DNA of 64,000 bases from Patescibacteria group bacterium (GTDB lineage: Bacteria; Patescibacteriota; Patescibacteriia; Buchananbacterales; UBA6539): the NCBI GenBank assembly GCA_028688055.1, contig JAQTYZ010000001.1, positions 39,866-103,865 on the forward strand, written 5' to 3'. How positions within the stretch are numbered: the first letter of the stretch is position 1; the number at the start of each line of letters is the position of its first letter. The position numbers and the translations under genes are program-made. Below are positions 1-42,308 of this stretch, in pieces. The notes beneath the pieces were generated by a model, which ran no database searches, was not told the origin of the DNA, and saw nothing but the letters and a program-made list of their open reading frames with translations.

Positions 1-1
1 G

Positions 2-1549
2 CAGCCGGATTTTTTGCCGTCGCTGGGTACCGAAGACTCATGGTTGTTCCCAATGGAGAAAAACGCGTTTTGGGAGCCGAGCTCGCGGACAGCCGATAGT
101 CTATCCGAGGGCGCTGAACGACTAGGTTTCCGTTGTGGTCGCCAAATCACACCGGAGAACAGTTCAATCAAGAAAAACGAACCTTTTACCAGGGCAGTCT
201 TCACTGCCCTTGAGCAGCGGACAGGGGTTCTTTGTCTGCGTACCACCATTGAAGGCGTTGGATTGCATCTGGCTCATTATTTTGAGCGCGCCGCCGATCG
301 AATCCCGTATTGGGTCCATGAAGCGGTCTTTGTGAACGGTGGTGATGGTCGGAAGAATCATCCGACTCAGATCCTGCTGGATGTAGTTTGTTACACGGCA
401 TACCGTCTCGGGATGACGACGTATAACAACGCTGGTATTAAGGCGCTCGAAGTTAAACTCGCCGAAATGTCTGACGACGCTATTGGTGAATTCATCACCG
501 CGACGCTTAATGGGTTGAAAATTGCCATCGTCGGTGACGGGAAGAATAGCCGCGTGACTAACAGTTGGATTGACTTAGGTCGACTGTTTGACATCAAGTT
601 TCTTTTTGTCGCGCCGCAACCATTTCAGGTTGATCAATGGCGACTCGAAGGCGTCAAGTATTCAGTCTCAGACAAGTTGTCTGACGCCAAGGGTTGCCAT
701 ATCGTTTACACGATTCGCACGCAGATTGAACGTTTGGACAGAATTATGAGTGTCGCCGAAGCCGAGGAAGCAATTGCTTCGGTTATGATTACGCCTGAAT
801 TTCTCAGGGGCTTCAATGGCGTGATCATGGATGCCCAGCCCCTTGACGCTGAACGTCCGATTATTCATCCGTCGCTTTGGTCGGATCCTCAAGTGATTAT
901 GGATTTCCAAGCTGGTTGCGGCAGTATCACGCGTTGTGCGGTCTTCGACGAATGTTGGAGTCACCGGCACGATCACATTGAGTTGCCATCAATAGCTCAA
1001 GTCGAACCATCTAGGATCCTTGCCGCCGAATCAATCGCCGCTCATATCGAACGCGTGAAAGACAAGTGGGCTGGCGACCAGCGGAGCGTCAATCCGATCT
1101 ATAACGGAACGGTGCTCGATCGGCTTAAGGCTGGCTCCGGGTCATTGCTCGACTTATTGCTTGAGCGCGCAGGTGTCTATGGCCGTGAAGGCTCTGATTC
1201 GATCATTGCCAATCGTAAGCGTTCGACGACGTTGACTAAGAAAGACATCCTCTTTTTGGAGGATCGGTTCGTGCCATACCAAATGCTCGCGGCATTGACA
1301 ATGCTTGCCAGAGAAATGGTGGTGGTCGAGATGCGTGACGGTCAGTATCGGAAAATGTCTTTTGATTTACCACCGGCAATCGCGCAAATTTTCAACTGCC
1401 CGAATACGAATTGTATCACGCGCAACGATCCGGAAGCGGAAACATTTTTCCGCGTTAACGCTGGTGAAGTGCCGTCCTTTGACTGTGTGTACTGTCGTGA
1501 CCGCTTTAGCGCATCGCAAATGCGGAAGAGTCTCGCGTTGACACATTAG
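2..1549 (+). CDS. pyrB: Aspartate carbamoyltransferase (ATCase), catalytic PyrB domain fused in frame to a regulatory PyrI-like C-terminal domain. The 5' end is cut by the window edge.
   Basis: The catalytic domain carries the ATCase/OTCase motifs SSRTA (a STRTR-like carbamoyl-phosphate site), HPTQILLD, IRTQIERLD (RxQxER) and HPSL (HPLP-like). The C-terminal ~150 aa resemble PyrI: GTVLDRLKAG matches GTVIDHIP, and there are two Cys pairs, CPNTNC...CVYC, in a Zn-ribbon arrangement. The reading frame stays open to position 2, and the track start at 14 is a TTG. GC is about 50-52%, well above the rest of the window. Confidence 0.65.
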   Translation, partial: QPDFLPSLGTEDSWLFPMEKNAFWEPSSRTADSLSEGAERLGFRCGRQITPENSSIKKNEPFTRAVFTALEQRTGVLCLRTTIEGVGLHLAHYFERAADRIPYWVHEAVFVNGGDGRKNHPTQILLDVVCYTAYRLGMTTYNNAGIKALEVKLAEMSDDAIGEFITATLNGLKIAIVGDGKNSRVTNSWIDLGRLFDIKFLFVAPQPFQVDQWRLEGVKYSVSDKLSDAKGCHIVYTIRTQIERLDRIMSVAEAEEAIASVMITPEFLRGFNGVIMDAQPLDAERPIIHPSLWSDPQVIMDFQAGCGSITRCAVFDECWSHRHDHIELPSIAQVEPSRILAAESIAAHIERVKDKWAGDQRSVNPIYNGTVLDRLKAGSGSLLDLLLERAGVYGREGSDSIIANRKRSTTLTKKDILFLEDRFVPYQMLAALTMLAREMVVVEMRDGQYRKMSFDLPPAIAQIFNCPNTNCITRNDPEAETFFRVNAGEVPSFDCVYCRDRFSASQMRKSLALTH

Positions 1550-1571
1550 CAATCCGCACCTTGGTTAATCG

Positions 1572-1614
1572 CCGCTCTATCATCCCTTGGGACTTGAGGA
1601 GCGGTTATTTTTTT
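1572..1614 (+). terminator. Candidate rho-independent terminator after pyrB-pyrI
   Basis: A 6-bp stem ccgctc/gagcgg with a large loop is followed directly by ttattttttt, starting about 23 nt after the stop codon. Coordinates are approximate. Confidence 0.45.
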
Positions 1615-2024
1615 AAAAAAAAGAGAGCGCATCGACGTAATTGGTCTAGCGCTCTTGGTGGCGGATGGAGGGACAGTTGGTCAGGAAAAGATGGGGGAAT
1701 CCCCAACGAAGTTGAAGACGAGAGTCCCGAAAACGGGATGGCTGATGGTGCATTGGGACTTGAAAATCCCGTCTTCATGTCGGTCTTTCCAACCATTGTG
1801 TGCGCTGCTCCTCTCCGCGATTTGAATGTACTCTTCCGCCTCATGAGGCGGGACGGTTATTATGCCACCGGAATGGTGGCAAGCCTGGGCCCAACTCTCA
1901 AAGAGCTGGTCTGGGTTCAACGTCGCCGTTACTTGAGTCATCGGATTCACCTCCTTCCCGATAATTGTGATTTTGACGTTGTGGGAATTAATATACTACC
2001 GTAAAAAATTGAATTTGTCAAGAG

Positions 2025-2053
2025 TTGTCAGAGTGTTTAAAAAATTGTATGAT
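2025..2053 (+). promoter_or_regulatory. Sigma-70-like promoter upstream of aspS
   Basis: The -35 hexamer is TTGTCA, followed by a 17-nt spacer (gagtgtttaaaaaattg) and a -10 TATGAT. The -10 ends about 33 nt upstream of the aspS ATG. Confidence 0.55.
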
Positions 2054-2085: not shown

Positions 2086-3537
2086 ATGAAACGTACACCG
2101 ATTACAGAAACAGTGTCTAAAGCCGGGGAAAAGGTTCGGGTGGAAGGCTGGGTCCATACCCGTCGCGACCATGGCAAAATTATTTTTATTGATTTACGCG
2201 ATCGTTCTGGTGTCTTACAGATTGTTTTTTCACCGGAGTTCGAAAAAGCGCATATTTTAGCCAATAATTTGCGTTCAGAGTTTGTTATTGCCGTCGAAGG
2301 CACGGTTAATAAGCGCCCGGAAAAAATGGTCAACGACAAAATTGCCACTGGTACCGTTGAGATGGTTGGTGAAAATTTGGAAATATTAAACGAAGCAAAA
2401 ACCCCGCCGTTTGAAATTGATTCGCCAACGGCCGCCGGTGATGAAATTCGGATGAAATATCGTTATTTGGATTTACGCCGTGAGCGCATGAAAAATAATA
2501 TGATGATGCGGCACAAAGTAATTAAATTTGTCCGTGATTATTTCGATGCGAAAAATTTTTGGGAAATTGAAACTCCGGTTTTAACCAAAGGCACACCGGA
2601 AGGTGCGCGCGAATTTATCGTGCCCGCTCGACATTGGCCGGGAAAGTTTTATGTTTTACCGCAGTCGCCGCAACAGTTCAAGCAATTATTGATGGTGTCT
2701 GGTATTGAAAAATATTTTCAAATTGCCCGATGTTTCCGTGATGAAGATCAGCGCGGTGATCGGCAAGCGGAGTTTACGCAAATTGACGTGGAATTGAGTT
2801 TTGTTGATCAGGAAGATATTTTTGTCTTGGTTGAGGAGTTGATGATTGAAATGATTGAGAAGCTGTATCCCAACAAAAAAATTGCTACCAAACCTTTTCC
2901 GCGTTTAACGTATGCGGAAGCGATGGCAAAATATCAATCCGATAAACCGGACCTCAGAACCAACAAAGATGATCCCGACGAACTCGCTTTCTGCTGGGTT
3001 GTTGATATGCCAATGTTTGATCATTCAGCCAGTGAGAAAAAAACGGTCGCCATTCATCATCCGTTCACGATGCCTAATGCCGAAGATATGGCAAAATATC
3101 CTGATGAACCGCTGCAGTGGCGCGCTTATGCTTATGACTTGGCTTTGAATGGCAGCGAAATTTGGGGCGGCTCTCTTAGAATTCATCGCGAGGGTATTCA
3201 GAAAAAAGTTTTTGCCATTTTAGGTTTATCGGAAGACGAAACTCAACGCCGGTTTGGTCATATGCTGGAAGCCTTTACTTACGGCGCTCCGCCTCACGGC
3301 GGCATCGCCGCCGGGCTTGATCGCATTGTGACGATTTTGCAAAACGAACCAAGTATTCGCGAAGTTATTGCTTTTCCAAAAACTGGCGATAATCGCGACT
3401 TAATGATGGGAGCACCAAATATCGTCGGCGTTAAAGCCTTGACCGAGGCTCATATTAAATTAGCCGACGAAGTTATTGCTAAAGCCAAAGAGCAAGGTGA
3501 AACCGTCGCCGGTTCCGATACCAGTTTAGTTGATTGA
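2086..3537 (+). CDS. aspS: Aspartyl-tRNA synthetase, bacterial type but short (483 aa). The GAD insertion domain appears to be missing.
   Basis: It has an N-terminal OB fold, class II motif 2 FRDEDQRGDRQAEFTQIDVELSF, HHPFTMP, GGSLRIHR and motif 3 GGIAAGLDRIV. Motif 2 and motif 3 are only about 180 aa apart, compared with about 320 aa in E. coli AspRS. Confidence 0.85.
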   Translation: MKRTPITETVSKAGEKVRVEGWVHTRRDHGKIIFIDLRDRSGVLQIVFSPEFEKAHILANNLRSEFVIAVEGTVNKRPEKMVNDKIATGTVEMVGENLEILNEAKTPPFEIDSPTAAGDEIRMKYRYLDLRRERMKNNMMMRHKVIKFVRDYFDAKNFWEIETPVLTKGTPEGAREFIVPARHWPGKFYVLPQSPQQFKQLLMVSGIEKYFQIARCFRDEDQRGDRQAEFTQIDVELSFVDQEDIFVLVEELMIEMIEKLYPNKKIATKPFPRLTYAEAMAKYQSDKPDLRTNKDDPDELAFCWVVDMPMFDHSASEKKTVAIHHPFTMPNAEDMAKYPDEPLQWRAYAYDLALNGSEIWGGSLRIHREGIQKKVFAILGLSEDETQRRFGHMLEAFTYGAPPHGGIAAGLDRIVTILQNEPSIREVIAFPKTGDNRDLMMGAPNIVGVKALTEAHIKLADEVIAKAKEQGETVAGSDTSLVD

Positions 3538-3544
3538 TAAAATT

Positions 3545-3859
3545 ATGAAATTATCGCCGCTCCAAAAATATATCCTGATTCAAGGTATTGGGGCCAAAGA
3601 TAAAACGATTTCTAAATCAGTTTTGGAAAAGTTTTATTCAAGTAAAGCCGTAAAGCCAAACGCTAAAGATATTATTAGTATTATTACTAAAAGTGTCGAA
3701 CGATTAATAAAAAAAGAACTCATCATCGGCTATGGCTGGAAGACGCCGCAGAAATGGTATATTCGTCAAGGTAAATTAACCCCCAAAGGCATCAAGGCGG
3801 CCAAAGACCTGTTAGGAATTCAGCAAAAATTGCCCTTAAAAAATAAGTCTAAAAAATAA
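3545..3859 (+). CDS. Hypothetical basic protein
   Basis: This is an ORF from the track. The ATG at 3545 is preferred over the TTG at 3530, which overlaps the aspS stop. The C-terminus is lysine-rich and I recognised no motifs. Confidence 0.4.
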   Translation: MKLSPLQKYILIQGIGAKDKTISKSVLEKFYSSKAVKPNAKDIISIITKSVERLIKKELIIGYGWKTPQKWYIRQGKLTPKGIKAAKDLLGIQQKLPLKNKSKK

Positions 3860-3869
3860 TTTTAAATTT

Positions 3870-4469
3870 ATGGCTGTTCCAAAAAATGTCAAAAAATATT
3901 TGGACACCAAAATGGCCAAGTATGACGAGCTGTCGCATAAAACAGTTTACACGGCTTATGATGCGGCACAAACCCTGCGTCGCGAGTTAAGGGAAATTGC
4001 CAAGAGTTTGTTAATTGCCACTGATAAGGCTTACATTATTGCGGTCGTGCCGGCCCATATGCGTTTAGATTTGGGCAAATTAAAAAAAGCCTTGCAGTCC
4101 AAAAAAATATCAATTCCGGATGAGAAGGTAATGGTTAAGGTTTTTAAAGTTAAAGCCGGTGCCATGACGGCGTTTGGCGGTTTGCATAAAGTCGAAGTTT
4201 GGGTTGACCGAAGTTTGTTAAAAACGAAAGAGGTTATTTTATCGGCGGGAAATTTTACGGATTCGGTTCGGATGAAAGCTAAGGATTTTATTGAACTGGA
4301 ACAAGCGAAATTGGCAAGTTTTACTAAGAGCGGGGGATACAAATTACAAACCAAAGCTGTCACCGCGAAGAAAAAAGTAAAAAAATTAACCACCCGGAAA
4401 AAAGGTGTTAAAAAAATCGGCCAACCGAAAGTGAAAAAATCTCCAGCCGTTAAGCGTAAAAAACGCTAG
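3870..4469 (+). CDS. YbaK/ProX-family aminoacyl-tRNA trans-editing deacylase with a C-terminal polylysine tail
   Basis: AVVPAHMRLDLGKLKKAL, KAGAMTAFGG and ILSAGNFTDSVRM align with E. coli YbaK (AVTPVAGQLDLKKVAKAL, TGYLVGG, YVSGGKRGLDIEL). The last ~45 aa are KKKVKKLTTRKKGVKKIGQPKVKKSPAVKRKKR. Confidence 0.65.
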   Translation: MAVPKNVKKYLDTKMAKYDELSHKTVYTAYDAAQTLRRELREIAKSLLIATDKAYIIAVVPAHMRLDLGKLKKALQSKKISIPDEKVMVKVFKVKAGAMTAFGGLHKVEVWVDRSLLKTKEVILSAGNFTDSVRMKAKDFIELEQAKLASFTKSGGYKLQTKAVTAKKKVKKLTTRKKGVKKIGQPKVKKSPAVKRKKR

Positions 4470-5233: not shown

Positions 5234-5794
5234 CTAGGCGTCATTTTGATCACCGTTTGGGGGTGCCACAAAGTGCAATTTAATCTGTCCGGCCTCTGGT
5301 AAATAACGATAGATCGACGCCACGGTGGCAGCTTCAACTCCGAAGTGCTGCAACCCTGATGGATCGGTGATAATCACCGTTTGTCCAGGCAAAGTCGAAA
5401 CAATGGCGCGTAGGGCAATTCCAATCTCAACCGAAAACGAGTAGTGGTCACGAGGAATCTCAAAGCCACAGGCCATAATTATGGTTTGTGTTTGAGGCTT
5501 GTATACCTCAGCGGTACCGTACACCGGCGAAAAATGGGTTACCTTGTCGCGAAGACATAATAGCTTCGCCATATCAATGTGCCTTTGACCCACGCCGCAA
5601 CGGACATGGTGGATGTTTCTCGGTAAGCACTCCATGAGCCTTACAGTCCGTTTTAATCCGAGCGGTGTTAAAGCGGGATTTGGCTCGTTGGTGGAGATAT
5701 CGGCATGCGTTACAAAATAAATTGTCCTTGACAAAGGGCTGCCCTCCAATTGGTTTTTGTTTGTCCGGCTAAAACTTATCAGCAATTGTACCAT
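5234..5794 (-). CDS. Hypothetical protein in a GC-rich insert, possibly a histidine-phosphatase (SixA-like) fold with a degenerate RHG motif.
   Basis: IYFVTHAD...PLTPLGLKRTVRL resembles the SixA N-terminus (IMRHGDA...PLT.G), but R is replaced by T and G by A. GC is about 52% against a flank of about 38%. The gene sits on the minus strand between scpA and scpB. Confidence 0.3.
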   Translation of the reverse strand: MVQLLISFSRTNKNQLEGSPLSRTIYFVTHADISTNEPNPALTPLGLKRTVRLMECLPRNIHHVRCGVGQRHIDMAKLLCLRDKVTHFSPVYGTAEVYKPQTQTIIMACGFEIPRDHYSFSVEIGIALRAIVSTLPGQTVIITDPSGLQHFGVEAATVASIYRYLPEAGQIKLHFVAPPNGDQNDA

Positions 5795-30785: not shown

Positions 30786-30906
30786 TTTAAAGTCTAAACA
30801 TTTAATCCCGATTGGTCTCGGGATTTTTGGTTGCCAATTTTTTGGCTAATTGATAAAGTATAGGCGCTCTTTGGTTTTGTTCCCTACAACTCATAAAGGA
30901 AATGTC

Positions 30907-32199
30907 ATGAACAGAGACGGTCTAACAGTCTTGGTTATCGGCTCTGGTGGCCGAGAGGACGCCGTGTGCTGGAAATTGTCTCAGTCATCGTTGTTGAGAA
31001 AACTCTTTTGCGCTCCCGGTAATGCCGGCACCGCGCGCTGGGCAACCAATGTTGCCATTAAGGCAATCAATATTCAAGACCTGGTAACTTGGGCGATTGC
31101 CAACGGTGTCAATTTTGTTGTCGTCACGCCTGATGATCCGTTGGCGTTAGGCCTGGTTAATGCCTTTAACGAAGTCGGCATTATGGCATTTGGTCCGACG
31201 CTGGCCGCGGCGCAAATTGAAGCCTCAAAAGCTTACGCGGCTGAGGTAGAACAACGGTATCGAATTCCGATGCCGCACACTGTGTCGTTCAATGATTTTC
31301 CGAAAGCCCTTCGCTATTTGGATTTTTTGGCGCAAATCGGCGTGGAACGCTGTGTCGTTAAGGCTAGCGGTTTGGCGCTGGGCAAAGGTGCTTATCCTTG
31401 TCCAAGTCTCGGAGACGCGAGGTTAGTTTTATATCGCGTGATGATTGACAAGGTCAACGGTGCCGCCGGTGATACGGTGGTCATTCAGGAGTACCTTGAT
31501 GGTGCTGAACTTTCGGCTCACGCGTTTTGTGATGGCGAGACTGCAGTAATGATGCCGTGGTCGCGCGATTATAAACGTATCACCGATGAGGGCGGTGACA
31601 TGACTGGCGGTATGGGCTGTGATACTTATTCTGATCATATCACGCCACAACTAGCGGCGACCATCGAAAGTCAAATCGCCAAGCGTCTGTTGCAGGCGCT
31701 GCAAGCCGAAGAACGCCCGTTTAAGGGTGTGCTGTATCCGGGATTGATGCTGACCGAGCAAGGTCCCAAGGTGATTGAATTCAATTGCCGTTTCGGTGAT
31801 CCGGAAACGCAGGTCATTTTGCCGCGCCTTGAATCTGACTTGCTGGAGGTGATGTTCGCCTGTGTTAACGGTTCGTTAAGGAATCAGGAAGTCCGTTGGA
31901 ATGGCAAGCAGGTTGTGGCCGTTGTCCTGGCGTCGGCTGGTTATCCGGCTAGTAGGCAGATTGACGTGCCAATTTACGGAGTCAACGAAGCCGAAGCGCT
32001 TGAAGGTGTAACTATTTTTCATGCCGGTACTAAGCGCGACCATTCTGGTCAGCTGTTGACTAACGGCGGTCGTGTTTTGAATGTCACGGCCGAAGGCGAT
32101 GATTTAGCGCAGGCAACCGAGCGCGCTTATGGCGCCGTTGACTACATTAGTTTTGAAGGTATGCAATACCGAGAAAAAATCGGTAGCCGCTCATTCTAA
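30907..32199 (+). CDS. purD: Phosphoribosylamine--glycine ligase
   Basis: VLVIGSGGREDAVCWKL and the ATP-grasp core match PurD. GC is about 50-52%. The start is taken at the ATG at 30907 (MNRDGLTVLVIGSGGRE). Confidence 0.8.
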   Translation: MNRDGLTVLVIGSGGREDAVCWKLSQSSLLRKLFCAPGNAGTARWATNVAIKAINIQDLVTWAIANGVNFVVVTPDDPLALGLVNAFNEVGIMAFGPTLAAAQIEASKAYAAEVEQRYRIPMPHTVSFNDFPKALRYLDFLAQIGVERCVVKASGLALGKGAYPCPSLGDARLVLYRVMIDKVNGAAGDTVVIQEYLDGAELSAHAFCDGETAVMMPWSRDYKRITDEGGDMTGGMGCDTYSDHITPQLAATIESQIAKRLLQALQAEERPFKGVLYPGLMLTEQGPKVIEFNCRFGDPETQVILPRLESDLLEVMFACVNGSLRNQEVRWNGKQVVAVVLASAGYPASRQIDVPIYGVNEAEALEGVTIFHAGTKRDHSGQLLTNGGRVLNVTAEGDDLAQATERAYGAVDYISFEGMQYREKIGSRSF

Positions 32200-32265: not shown

Positions 32266-32341
32266 TGGTCGGGCTGGCGGGATTTGAACCCACGACCTCA
32301 TCGTCCCGAACGATGCGCGCTACCAGCTGCGCTACAGCCCG
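32266..32341 (-). tRNA. tRNA-Pro (anticodon CGG)
   Basis: The reverse complement TCGGGCTGTAGCGCAGCTGGTAGCGCGCATCGTTCGGGACGATGAGGTCGTGGGTTCAAATCCCGCCAGCCCGACCA folds into a cloverleaf with anticodon loop TCGGGAC and T-arm GGTTCAAATCC. CCA is encoded. Confidence 0.85.
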
Positions 32342-32631: not shown

Positions 32632-33060
32632 CTACGTCAAATTGCTTCGCCGACTGAAGCCTGGTAGACGATTGATCGTCCAACCGAGCAAGATCAGTGT
32701 GAAGCTACCGGTGTACCAATACAGTACCTGAACGGTAGGGGTTTCTTGAGCTGGCTCAAAGAGCACACCGATGTAACCAACGAGGGAGAATACGATACCC
32801 CATTGTCGTTTCGGGTGCTCCATTTGCCAGTCAAGCCAGATGGCTAGCTGCTGTAGGAATCGGATGGTCAGATAGCTGATCGGCAGCAAGAGGGCGCCGA
32901 TAAAACTGATCTGACAAATCAGATTTGCCCCGATGACTACGGCGATCATTCCGATGGCGAATAGTGCCAGGCATATCTGGACGAGCCAGAACTGCTTGGA
33001 GTACCAGCCCCAGAATTCTGCCAATGTGCGGTCAATCATTCGACCAAAACGTTCGAACAT
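32632..33060 (-). CDS. Hypothetical membrane protein in a GC-rich block
   Basis: It is 142 aa with three or four TM helices. GC is about 52%. A strong SD (GGAGGAG) lies 7 nt upstream of the ATG, unlike neighbouring genes. Confidence 0.5.
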   Translation of the reverse strand: MFERFGRMIDRTLAEFWGWYSKQFWLVQICLALFAIGMIAVVIGANLICQISFIGALLLPISYLTIRFLQQLAIWLDWQMEHPKRQWGIVFSLVGYIGVLFEPAQETPTVQVLYWYTGSFTLILLGWTINRLPGFSRRSNLT

Positions 33061-40375: not shown

Positions 40376-41872
40376 TTACGCCGGAACCTCAATGAAGTCT
40401 GCTTCGGCTGGACCAGTACTGACCCGATCAATCACAATCGGTTCGGTGGCGCCGATGTTGAGTACGCCTTCGACCAGTTTTATGTAGTCTTTGGCCGCCT
40501 TCGGCAATTTCTGCCAGTCAGTCAGGCCGCGAATATCTTCAGTCCAGCCACTACAGGTCAAATAGCTGACGCCGACTTGCCCAATTAGTGTTGAGTCATC
40601 CGTCATGAAAAAGATTTCCCTGCCATTAAGCGTCCAACAACGGCCAACTTTGAGTTCGGGTTCTCCCGAAAGGGCATCGAGCTTAGCCAGCGTGACTTTG
40701 GTCACGCCATTAAGGCGGCAACCGGTTCTGGCAATGACACTGTCAAACCAGCCGATGTTGCGCACCCGTCCGGTGGTTGCGCCTTGCTCGTCGTCGACTC
40801 TTCGTTTGGTTGGATCAGTCGATCCTTGAAGTCGACGTGATAAGTCGTTTTCGAACTGCGTCGGAAATCCACCGGAGCCGACTTTGGACATAAATGCCTT
40901 GGCAACGCCACGGACTTCTCGAACCATCGTCGGTCCGATGCCAATGCCGACGCAAACGCCGCCGGCGGTGGTGTGAGACGAAGTCACATTTGGGTAACTT
41001 CCGAAGTCAATGTCGAGAGCCGAACCTTGGGCACCTTCGAAGAGAATTGCCCCGCCGGACTGTAATGTCCGGTGTGCCAATTCGCAGACGTCGCCAATGA
41101 TGCCTAGTGCGACGATTTGTTGTCGGAGGCTTTCATAGTATTCGACGAGAGCATCGGGCAGAAACTTGACGTAGTCAAGCGGGTGACAGAATCGACTGTA
41201 GTCAAATTCCGTCGCTTTGACGCGACCGCCCTCAATGAGTTTGGCGTTGGCGCGACGATCCTTTTCTTCCAGCTTGCGGAAGATTGCTTTCCAATCGGCA
41301 ACGGCAATGCCGCTCGCGGCAAACAGTCGCGTTTTTTCCTCAAGTTGGCGCCGAAGATGGGCCTCGAATCTTTGCGCGTCAAGCAGTTCGTGCGCATGAA
41401 TTGCCGTCCGGCTAGCCTTGTCGGCGTAAGTCGGGCCAATCCCTTGAGCGGTGGTGCCAACTTGACTGCCGCTCTTAGCCTTGAGCCACTCTTCCACCAT
41501 ATCCTGAATTCGGTGATAAATCATCGTCAGGCAACAACGGCCGTCGAGCATTAGTCGCGGTATCGGGTCAATGCCAAAACTTCGCACCGATTCGATTTCA
41601 TGAAGCAGGGCCGAAGGACTAATAATTGCTCCGGCACCAACAGCGGACAGGACTTCGCCAACCGAAATGGCTGACGGCAGAGCATGAAGCACGAGCGGCT
41701 CAACCTGGCCAGTCAAGAGGTTTAGCGTCATGGTCGTGTGACCCGCATTGTTGCCGCCTTGACCTCGGACCACAAGCTGATACAATCCTGATCTGGCACG
41801 TCGATAAGACTCCGTGCCCTTGCTTTCGTCACCGTACTGAATGCCGGTGAGCACGTCTACTAATCTTGACAC
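40376..41872 (-). CDS. purA: Adenylosuccinate synthetase
   Basis: QYGDESKG, NNAGHT, GTTAQGIGPTYADK, NVTSSHTTAGG and GATTGR are present. It uses a GTG start with the SD AGGAG 8 nt upstream. GC is about 58%. Confidence 0.85.
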   Translation of the reverse strand: MSRLVDVLTGIQYGDESKGTESYRRARSGLYQLVVRGQGGNNAGHTTMTLNLLTGQVEPLVLHALPSAISVGEVLSAVGAGAIISPSALLHEIESVRSFGIDPIPRLMLDGRCCLTMIYHRIQDMVEEWLKAKSGSQVGTTAQGIGPTYADKASRTAIHAHELLDAQRFEAHLRRQLEEKTRLFAASGIAVADWKAIFRKLEEKDRRANAKLIEGGRVKATEFDYSRFCHPLDYVKFLPDALVEYYESLRQQIVALGIIGDVCELAHRTLQSGGAILFEGAQGSALDIDFGSYPNVTSSHTTAGGVCVGIGIGPTMVREVRGVAKAFMSKVGSGGFPTQFENDLSRRLQGSTDPTKRRVDDEQGATTGRVRNIGWFDSVIARTGCRLNGVTKVTLAKLDALSGEPELKVGRCWTLNGREIFFMTDDSTLIGQVGVSYLTCSGWTEDIRGLTDWQKLPKAAKDYIKLVEGVLNIGATEPIVIDRVSTGPAEADFIEVPA

Positions 41873-41986
41873 GATATTTTCTCCTCTGGTTCGGGGGAAT
41901 ACTGATAACTAAATAAAAGGAACGCCTGGTCCCTCCGGCCTAAATAATAAATGACACCGTCGGTGGTGTCAATTATTATTTGTATT

Positions 41987-42265
41987 TTATTTGGTGTCTT
42001 CTAAAATTTTTGGGTTAGGGGAGTAGAGTCGATTTTTGATTTTCCACTTATCCACATACTGCCCAATGCCACTTTTATTAAGTTTATTCTTGGTTGTTGT
42101 TTTGCCCTGTGACCATTCTAATAGGCTGGAAAAGTTTATTTTATATCGACTTTGAACAACGATATATTTTAATTGTTCGGCTTTAATCGCTCGTCGTATC
42201 GTTTTAGTTTCGACGCCAAATAGTCTGGCTGCTTCGGAAACCGATACCCTGATAACATTTCCCAT
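41987..42265 (-). CDS. Small HTH_17 / excisionase-family DNA-binding protein
   Basis: VSVSEAARLFGVETKTIRRAIKAEQLKYIVVQSRYKINFSSLLEW matches the MerR-like Xis/HTH_17 fold. It is followed on its own strand by a hairpin gacacc/ggtgtc plus a T-rich tract. Confidence 0.55.
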   Translation of the reverse strand: MGNVIRVSVSEAARLFGVETKTIRRAIKAEQLKYIVVQSRYKINFSSLLEWSQGKTTTKNKLNKSGIGQYVDKWKIKNRLYSPNPKILEDTK

Positions 42266-42286
42266 ATGTCATTTATTATTAATTAT

Positions 42287-42308
42287 TTGTCTACAATATA
42301 CTAGACAA
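42287..42308 (+). promoter_or_regulatory. Inverted repeat upstream of the HTH_17 gene (candidate operator)
   Basis: The dyad ttgtcta-caatatac-tagacaa is 7 bp. It lies about 20-40 nt upstream of the minus-strand ATG at 42265. Confidence 0.35.

Follow-up and report, generated by a model that had tools for sequence, protein, structure and literature searches.

A divergent PyrB–PyrI fusion gene and a convergent 86-residue orphan gene beside aspS in a Patescibacteria genome

Positions 1–2085 of the 64-kb stretch of Patescibacteria DNA analyzed here (the window, numbered from its first letter) are probably the right-hand end of an old, conserved pyrimidine block that comprises the gene of a single-chain aspartate carbamoyltransferase (ATCase), pyrBI, and, on the opposite strand, a gene for an 86-residue protein. 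This reading is built on domain content, residue conservation, gene order, coding signatures, and the age of the anomaly in guanine-plus-cytosine (GC) content. The host genome appears related to Candidatus Buchananbacteria and would carry the compositionally distinct block between recO and aspS. In the proposed scheme, the large open reading frame (ORF) encodes a PyrB half joined by a linker of ~45 residues to a PyrI half, and the protein most probably uses carbamoyl phosphate as the carbamoyl donor and L-aspartate as the acceptor. Its assembly would most likely resemble that of the known c6r6 or fused enzymes, in which zinc-domain regulatory dimers bridge catalytic trimers. In most relatives, pyrBI would be co-transcribed after pyrK–pyrD, and the convergent small gene has a putative promoter, ribosome-binding site, and terminator of its own.

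De novo nucleotide synthesis is reportedly absent from most Patescibacteria (93% of genomes; preprint 10.64898/2026.06.21.733656). The retention of pyrK–pyrD–pyrBI beside the ribosomal-protein operon, together with purD and purA, in one lineage bears on the question of host dependence. The fused enzyme itself may be an allosteric ATCase that is compact and naturally made of one chain; its hallmark motifs are altered, and curated equivalog models miss it.

The fused pyrBI gene

The frame is open from nucleotide (nt) 2 to the stop codon at 1547–1549, and its 5' end runs past the window start. Homologues extend ~60 residues beyond the ATG at nt 53, and ~45 N-terminal codons, with the true start of pyrBI, sit upstream of the window. 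The deposited protein P0001 (498 residues, named 'aspartate carbamoyltransferase regulatory subunit') begins at that ATG. It is misnamed, and its annotated start drops a first strand and helix that are present in homologues; the position of this start suggests either a source contig beginning near the window start or a gene caller run with closed ends.

An earlier note on this DNA, made from the letters alone, had described the frame as a fusion of an ATCase catalytic domain with a PyrI-like regulatory domain. Profile comparison bears this out, with all four Pfam families tested, the catalytic PF02729 and PF00185 and the regulatory PF01948 and PF02748, scoring above their gathering thresholds, the C-terminal PyrI included (OTCace_N, 36.7 versus 29.9 bits; OTCace, 34.7 versus 29.4; PyrI, 29.4 versus 25; PyrI_C, 38.6 versus 23.4). 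The fusion is genuine and not the product of a frameshift: a single ORF is present in nine homologous clusters from independent assemblies, and these close clusters are single chains of 537–584 residues with an alignable linker. In an AlphaFold2 (AF2) model of the fused protein (predicted local distance difference test [pLDDT] score, 85.8; predicted template modeling [TM] score, 0.82), the N-terminal two-thirds superpose on ATCase catalytic chains with TM scores of 0.72–0.77. Between the two ATCase domains lies a subfamily-specific insertion at which the profile splits (residues 1–165 and 202–353) against every solved ATCase. It consists of two predicted helices (143–154 and 158–169, AF2 secondary structure) and is also missing from shorter fused relatives.

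Residue conservation within the family was read from an alignment of nine sequences, and equivalence to ATCase residues from alignment to solved ATCases, in the established E. coli numbering. Invariant in the family are S27, R29, T30, S54, S55, K58, R80, H120, P121, Q123, R184, R239, E243, and four cysteines. The OTCace_N domain contains SS..K (S54, S55, and K58), LRT (R80), and HPTQ (residues 120–123, nt 359–370), and on the carbamoyl-phosphate side, the equivalents of E. coli S52, R54, T55, S80, K84, R105, H134, and Q137 are kept. The deviating carbamoyl-phosphate motif pointed out previously, SSRTA in place of STRTR, is indeed found at residues 27–31 (nt 80–94); its ligands S52, R54, and T55 are retained, T53 is replaced by serine and R56 by alanine, and a sister subclade reads STRTK, STRTR, or STRTQ at this position. 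On the aspartate side, the equivalents of R167, R229, and Q231 are conserved (R184 in SRV; R239 and Q241 in IRTQIERL), and the segments GDGKNSRV and IRTQIERL have GDLKYGRTV and TRIQKERF as their aligned counterparts in the M. jannaschii ATCase. The equivalent of H106 is threonine, and the near-universal HPLPR is replaced by AQPLD (residues 278–282, nt 833–847), with A278, P280, and D282 unchanged throughout the family. In the relative P0005, lysine takes the place of the Q231 equivalent. The zinc cysteines C466, C471, C495, and C498 (codons at nt 1397–1399, 1412–1414, 1484–1486, and 1493–1495) are invariant in all nine sequences.

To call such a fusion unusual, as had been done, overstates the case. 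A fused allosteric ATCase has been characterized in Thermotoga maritima (Chen et al. 1998, J Bacteriol 180:6389, as cited in PMC4581275), NCBIfam contains a corresponding model (NF009916, 'bifunctional ATCase catalytic/regulatory subunit'), and an exhaustive profile search, with ~6000 fused and unfused PyrB hits overall, returned 115 cluster representatives at E ≤ 1e-30. Among the matches listed, most have 480–616 residues and span both halves; of the 115 representatives, most have 480–530 residues, and ~25 are 'long' forms matched in a single stretch like the window protein; named fused members come from Candidatus Buchananbacteria and Magasanikbacteria. The T. maritima enzyme and NF009916 likewise have PyrB at the N-terminus and PyrI, with its allosteric and zinc domains, at the C-terminus of one polypeptide, and the NF009916 match is collinear over both halves (residues 22–502 versus model positions 56–517 of 525). 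Unlike these, the window protein has the insertion of ~35 residues, SSRTA, AQPLD, and a Patescibacteria host. Class B ATCases with PyrB and PyrI chains (E. coli, M. jannaschii, and S. acidocaldarius; PDB 2rgw, 1ml4, 1pg5, and 1d09) have the same four domains, share the key substrate residues and the four zinc cysteines, and give the best sequence and fold matches, but they are encoded by two separate genes, and the window protein is only ~22–25% identical to them, with its insertion and two altered motifs. Among solved structures, the closest relatives are ATCase chains from archaea and bacteria (catalytic, E = 2e-38; regulatory, E = 6e-25); none of the solved structures matched is a fused chain.

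Short fused forms of ~480–530 residues in metagenomes, such as P0035 from Candidatus Buchananbacteria (deposited as 'hypothetical protein'), have the same architecture without the inter-domain insertion. Their intermediate motif states (HPLPC, HPQP, HAQP, and DAMP) connect canonical ATCases to the window subfamily, and with TIGR00670 they reach 212–266 bits, at or near the cut-off, versus 104–128 bits for the window subfamily. The window protein therefore stands at the divergent extreme of a broad radiation of fused proteins that lacks curation. It belongs to a very divergent, long subfamily of the already known PyrB–PyrI fusion.

The small gene on the opposite strand

The interval 1615–2010 had been described as lacking a convincing ORF and as a non-coding tail, possibly a decayed gene remnant. 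Neither description holds: a minus-strand ORF preceded by a Shine–Dalgarno sequence runs through it and is conserved in relatives (Table 1), and the 'tail' is best read from these sequence signatures as a conserved small protein gene plus terminators. Orthologues of 83–99 codons occupy the same place and strand in five lineages (L001/L008, L003, L006/L013, L007, and L012). Of eight sequenced copies, six have AAGGAGGTGA or GGGAGGTGA ahead of the start, and the L006 and L007 copies are read from upstream GTG codons; a stem and T-run follow the stop codon in every orthologous locus. Third codon positions account for most of the differences: those between the window and L012 are distributed over the three positions as 8/14/27 (22 synonymous and 15 non-synonymous codons), and those between L003 and L006 as 23/17/47. 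A decayed remnant was rejected because the ORF is intact in every locus and has these translation and termination signals. A plus-strand ORF of 147 residues (1561–2004) was also rejected, as it has no Pfam match and is interrupted by stop codons in L012.

The stop codons of pyrBI and the small gene converge on a 131-nt spacer in which the two terminators lie back to back and share a T7/A8 tract. This spacer is ~100% identical in L012, compared to an overall identity of 87%, and the stem of the small-gene terminator has a predicted energy of -15 kcal/mol (z = -3.3). On the other side, the spacer that contains the promoter-like site of aspS has a GC content of 0.29 and forms the 3' boundary of the GC-rich region.

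Among 5.8 billion proteins, a profile search recovered no members of the small-protein family beyond these few. Pfam, NCBIfam, and PHROGs yielded nothing usable for the 86-residue protein, nor did BFVD (E ≥ 0.058), and profile–profile comparison with the PyrBI family gave a probability of 0.15%. The AF2 model, with an input of only five sequences, predicts a helix–strand–helix–strand–strand–strand fold (pLDDT, 87). Its sole fold resemblances, all with noise-level scores, are to single beta-alpha-beta-beta-beta modules of glyoxalase/VOC proteins and to eL38; it has no sequence similarity to these and no demonstrated conserved metal-ligand pattern, and it is not a member of either family.

The nested hairpins and the 16-bp perfect palindrome reported for this interval are located where the earlier note placed them. 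The pair GAAGACG...CGTCTTC at 1713–1777 encloses two inner stems, and the palindrome CCGCCTCATGAGGCGG occupies exactly 1836–1851. Together with hairpins at 1692–1705 and 1863–1881, they all lie inside the 86-residue coding sequence, where the palindrome encodes P-P-H-E-A-E.

Gene order, composition, and alternative readings

Six lineages besides the window, independently assembled (ENA, JGI, Logan, and NCBI), carry the block. In L001/L008, L003, and L006, the order is ribosomal-protein operon, secY, adk, map, ruvX, recO, pyrK, pyrD, pyrBI, small ORF (opposite strand), and aspS. L009 (4369–6117) is arranged alike except that it lacks the small ORF and has a 135-nt gap before aspS; in L011, pyrBI lies upstream of a tRNA-editing gene and scpA, the small ORF is absent, and no aspartyl-tRNA synthetase (AspRS) gene was recognized beside pyrBI. 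All seven lineages have the block at one and the same site, with no patchy presence seen, and pyrBI adjoins pyrK–pyrD in five of the seven. A scan of genome contigs with four of the nine family sequences returned two loci. The nearest named relatives all belong to the Patescibacteria, Buchananbacteria and Magasanikbacteria among them. One locus, L007 (CAZINP010000003.1, 9854–11888), is labeled 'uncultured Gammaproteobacteria' yet shows the gene order of Patescibacteria, and an error in binning or taxonomy probably explains the label. Orthologues of both pyrBI and aspS are saturated at synonymous sites (same-codon fraction, 0.31–0.49, versus 0.32–0.38 expected), which indicates that the block predates the divergence of the lineages. 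This saturation, together with L003 and L006 being the closest pair for every gene, is consistent with vertical descent.

The GC content is 0.48–0.54 over positions 1–2000 and 0.38–0.44 just past ~2000 (400-nt windows), and that of the first 1.5 kb is 0.511, compared to 0.405 ± 0.036 for the remaining window (z = 2.9). The GC-rich first 2 kb described previously are thus real, and their composition deviates from the rest as that of a transferred island would. The step of ~10 points is sharp and lies at 1940–2000; it is the only boundary inside the window, the 5' boundary being upstream of position 1. In pyrBI, GC at the first, second, and third codon positions (GC1, GC2, and GC3) is elevated in each case. 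In most genomes the block lies 8–12 points above its flanks, and the GC3 of pyrBI lies 10–25 points above the flanks in five of the seven lineages, despite synonymous saturation. The excess is absent from pyrBI of L009 (0.380 versus 0.375 for the locus) and little or none is seen in pyrBI of L001; L009 is the only lineage lacking both the small ORF and the pyrBI excess. In a scan of most window ORFs of at least 120 residues, pyrBI, purD, and purA were the only nucleotide-synthesis genes, and they are three of the four GC-richest among the 56 window ORFs. In the near relative L015, purA and purD are likewise GC-rich.

A GC-rich start of this kind, called an insert in the earlier note, invites the reading of a recent acquisition by horizontal transfer, or of an assembly chimera joined near position 2000. 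The sharp step and the elevation of GC1, GC2, and GC3 would fit such an origin, as would the patchy occurrence of nucleotide-synthesis genes reported for Patescibacteriota (preprint 10.64898/2026.06.21.733656). Yet the same junctions and gene order recur in the six other lineages from independent assemblies, which excludes both a recent insertion and, indirectly, through the pyrBI/small ORF/AspRS junction shared among these assemblies, an assembly chimera joined at ~2000. The saturated synonymous sites, the distances among relatives, which follow those of the flanking genes, and the membership of all the nearest relatives in the Patescibacteria argue in the same direction, and no integrase, tRNA, or repeat was seen at the block borders (recO and aspS) in relatives. 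With its 5' boundary upstream of position 1, an insert is not visible in the window as such, and a recent transfer or chimera is extremely unlikely. The locus serves as a warning in this respect, since its GC step and hairpins mimicked a transferred element with an RNA tail, where comparison points to an old vertical block and an unannotated small gene. An older or recurrent exchange is a different matter. The block may have been acquired once by an ancestor of the lineage, or replaced repeatedly by homologous recombination from GC-richer relatives, with the excess kept up by an ongoing process; candidates are recurrent replacement, biased gene conversion, and compositional selection on genes of nucleotide synthesis. 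Taken jointly, these possibilities are held tentatively, as somewhat less than an even prospect. They would account for the GC3 excess that persists despite saturation and for the shared pattern of pyrBI, purD, and purA, in the window and, for the pur genes, in L015. The pyrBI sequences also fall into two motif subclades (SSRT/HPTQ and STRT/HPSQ) that are not clearly mirrored by the flanking genes. On the other hand, no donor was identified, the excess is not universal (L009 and pyrBI of L001), the pur genes were seen in one window and one near relative, and the elevated GC1 and GC2 indicate that part of the excess is amino-acid composition. Distances of pyrBI and flanking genes show no firm incongruence either; a clade of L007 and L009 pyrBI at odds with the flanks was considered and set aside, as the pairwise identities are too star-like to decide. 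A GC excess that outlasts synonymous saturation is not predicted by a simple old transfer and is unexplained, which makes it a small, testable problem in genome evolution.

The function of the two genes leaves room for other readings. Several findings weigh against an ATCase in a conserved pyrimidine block. carAB, pyrC, pyrE, and pyrF were not found in the 64-kb window. In the protein itself, R56 of STRTR is alanine and HPLPR has become AQPLD, and the window protein is missed by the equivalog models for the catalytic chain (TIGR00670, 103.6 bits versus a cut-off of 236.95; NF002032, 101.2 versus 263), the regulatory chain (TIGR00240, 53.2 versus 148.55), and the fusion (NF009916, 80.2 versus 800, with six relatives at 82–162 bits and P0029 below the listing threshold). 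pyrBI also evolves faster than its neighbors (37–55% identity, versus 71–83% for AspRS), and L007 has pyrBI and the small ORF without pyrK–pyrD. The two replaced hallmark motifs, the scores far under the cut-offs, the fast evolution, and the L007 arrangement, along with the insertion at the domain junction and the lysine of P0005, would suit a fused protein that is no longer an ATCase, having become either a transcarbamylase that uses a different acceptor or a scaffold or regulator that has lost catalysis. Such a change is nevertheless unlikely. The protein retains its ligands for both aspartate carboxylates and for the phosphate and carbonyl groups of carbamoyl phosphate, pyrK–pyrD is adjacent in most lineages, the graded motifs HPLPC, HPQP, HAQP, and DAQP of the shorter fused relatives suggest drift within a working site, and models of ornithine carbamoyltransferase score much worse on the window protein than ATCase models. 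For the interval 1615–2010, the alternative is that a structured RNA, or a palindrome bound by a regulator, functions here, either by itself or superimposed on the coding sequence. Folding of the region is indeed more favorable than that of its dinucleotide shuffles (z = -2.6 on the plus strand and -3.5 on the minus strand), and the small-ORF transcript has z ≤ -2.0 (2–3.7 standard deviations better than shuffles) in four of five independent lineages, compared to -1.25 to +0.9 for pyrBI and aspS segments taken as controls. The L012 copy has a paired change in the palindrome (CCGCC...GGCGG to CCTCC...GGAGG), and its two inner hairpins are altered in their loops only. However, the Rfam scan that the earlier note had proposed, run over 1400–2300 at E ≤ 10, gave no match at the gathering score of any family: the best matches had E-values of 0.88–8.8 and scored far below the gathering thresholds, and the chance-level matches mir-1303, flavivirus CRE, and CC2171 were rejected. 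No shared fold emerged from RNAalifold on a codon alignment of seven small-ORF orthologues (-0.8 kcal/mol, almost no pairs), so that the hairpins are lineage-specific. The palindrome loses its prominence as well, with three 16-bp perfect palindromes in the window versus 1.3 ± 1.1 in shuffles, a number no greater than chance. The sequence is under clear protein-coding constraint, and the lone compensatory pair, from a single comparison, is anecdotal. An RNA or binding-site function is thus very unlikely, and the excess folding energy is treated as a side finding that is unexplained and does not count as evidence of an RNA element.

The old pyrimidine block with a single-chain ATCase and a small convergent gene therefore remains the preferred reading, and its interest resides in the altered motifs of the active site, the orphan protein that accompanies pyrBI, and the lasting GC excess of nucleotide-synthesis genes. 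A more far-reaching version would hold the retained pyrK, pyrD, pyrBI, purD, and purA at 10–15 GC points (GC3 up to +25) above the genome through ongoing selection on composition or codon use, or through recurrent homologous replacement, as opposed to the residue of a single transfer, and would have the 86-residue orphan act on the single-chain ATCase as its partner or regulator, specific to this lineage. This combination is decidedly doubtful; the small protein may be linked to the enzyme.

Other features of the window

Table 1. Positions of the pyrBI region, its neighbors, and the pur genes in the window
Feature	Position	Strand	Basis or remark
3' 516 codons of the fused PyrB–PyrI (single-chain ATCase-like) gene	2..1549	+	Open frame, domains, alignments, AF2
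Carbamoyl-phosphate-binding domain OTCace_N, residues 21–130	62..391	+	Pfam, alignments
Subfamily-specific insertion of ~35 residues between the two ATCase domains	407..511	+	Profile split, AF2
Aspartate-binding domain OTCace	512..952	+	Pfam, alignments
Catalytic–regulatory linker, residues ~318–361, alignable family-wide	953..1084	+	Family alignment
PyrI allosteric domain (residues 362–449) and PyrI_C zinc domain (460–504)	1085..1513	+	Pfam, NCBIfam, alignments
Putative pyrBI terminator: stem-loop 1571–1605 (-16.9 kcal/mol), then T7 1608–1614	1571..1614	+	Almost unchanged in L012
Putative small-gene terminator: stem 1655..1624, then T8 (1622..1615)	1615..1655	-	100% identical in L012
Gene for 86-residue orphan protein	1941..1681	-	Conserved ORF, Shine–Dalgarno site, codon-position bias
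Shine–Dalgarno sequence AGGAGG, 8 nt before ATG 1941	1950..1955	-	Sequence, orthologous copies
Promoter-like site of the small gene, TTGACA-17 nt-TAGTAT	1993..2021	-	-35 kept, -10 is TACTAT in L012
Divergent promoter-like site for aspS, TTGTCA-17 nt-TATGAT	2025..2053	+	AT-rich spacer
aspS, AspRS, conserved right-hand neighbor, GC 0.444 (background)	2086..3537	+	Domains, synteny
purD (GARS)	30850–32199	+	GC 0.513
purA (adenylosuccinate synthetase)	40376–41872	-	GC 0.545

Like pyrBI, purD and purA are single-gene GC-rich islands in a background of 0.405. The window PurA has 498 residues, compared to ~428 in a typical PurA; one close relative was found (79% identity), the remaining matches are at most 37% identical, and a PurA search of metagenomes gave no match. 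A small gene of the HTH_17 type (excisionase-like, DNA-binding) adjoins purA in the window (41980–42300), in the near-identical Logan contig L014, and in the relative L015 (9592–9894). Next to tRNA-Pro (32266–32341) is a minus-strand ORF of 142 residues (32632–33060; GC, 0.513; GC3, 0.63) without a Pfam or NCBIfam match. It may not be a real gene, since no gene was called in the matching interval of L015 (18598–19401).

Between scpA and scpB lies a minus-strand ORF of 186 residues (5234–5794; GC, 0.483), also without a Pfam or NCBIfam match; scpA and scpB are adjacent in L003 and L006, and it may therefore be a genuine small insertion. The interval 3530–4469, between aspS and the gene with a tRNA-editing domain, contains only an ORF of 109 residues. 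Relatives have an HD-domain gene, a gene of ~100 residues, and mostly also a DUF5671 gene at this place, which points to a local deletion in the window.

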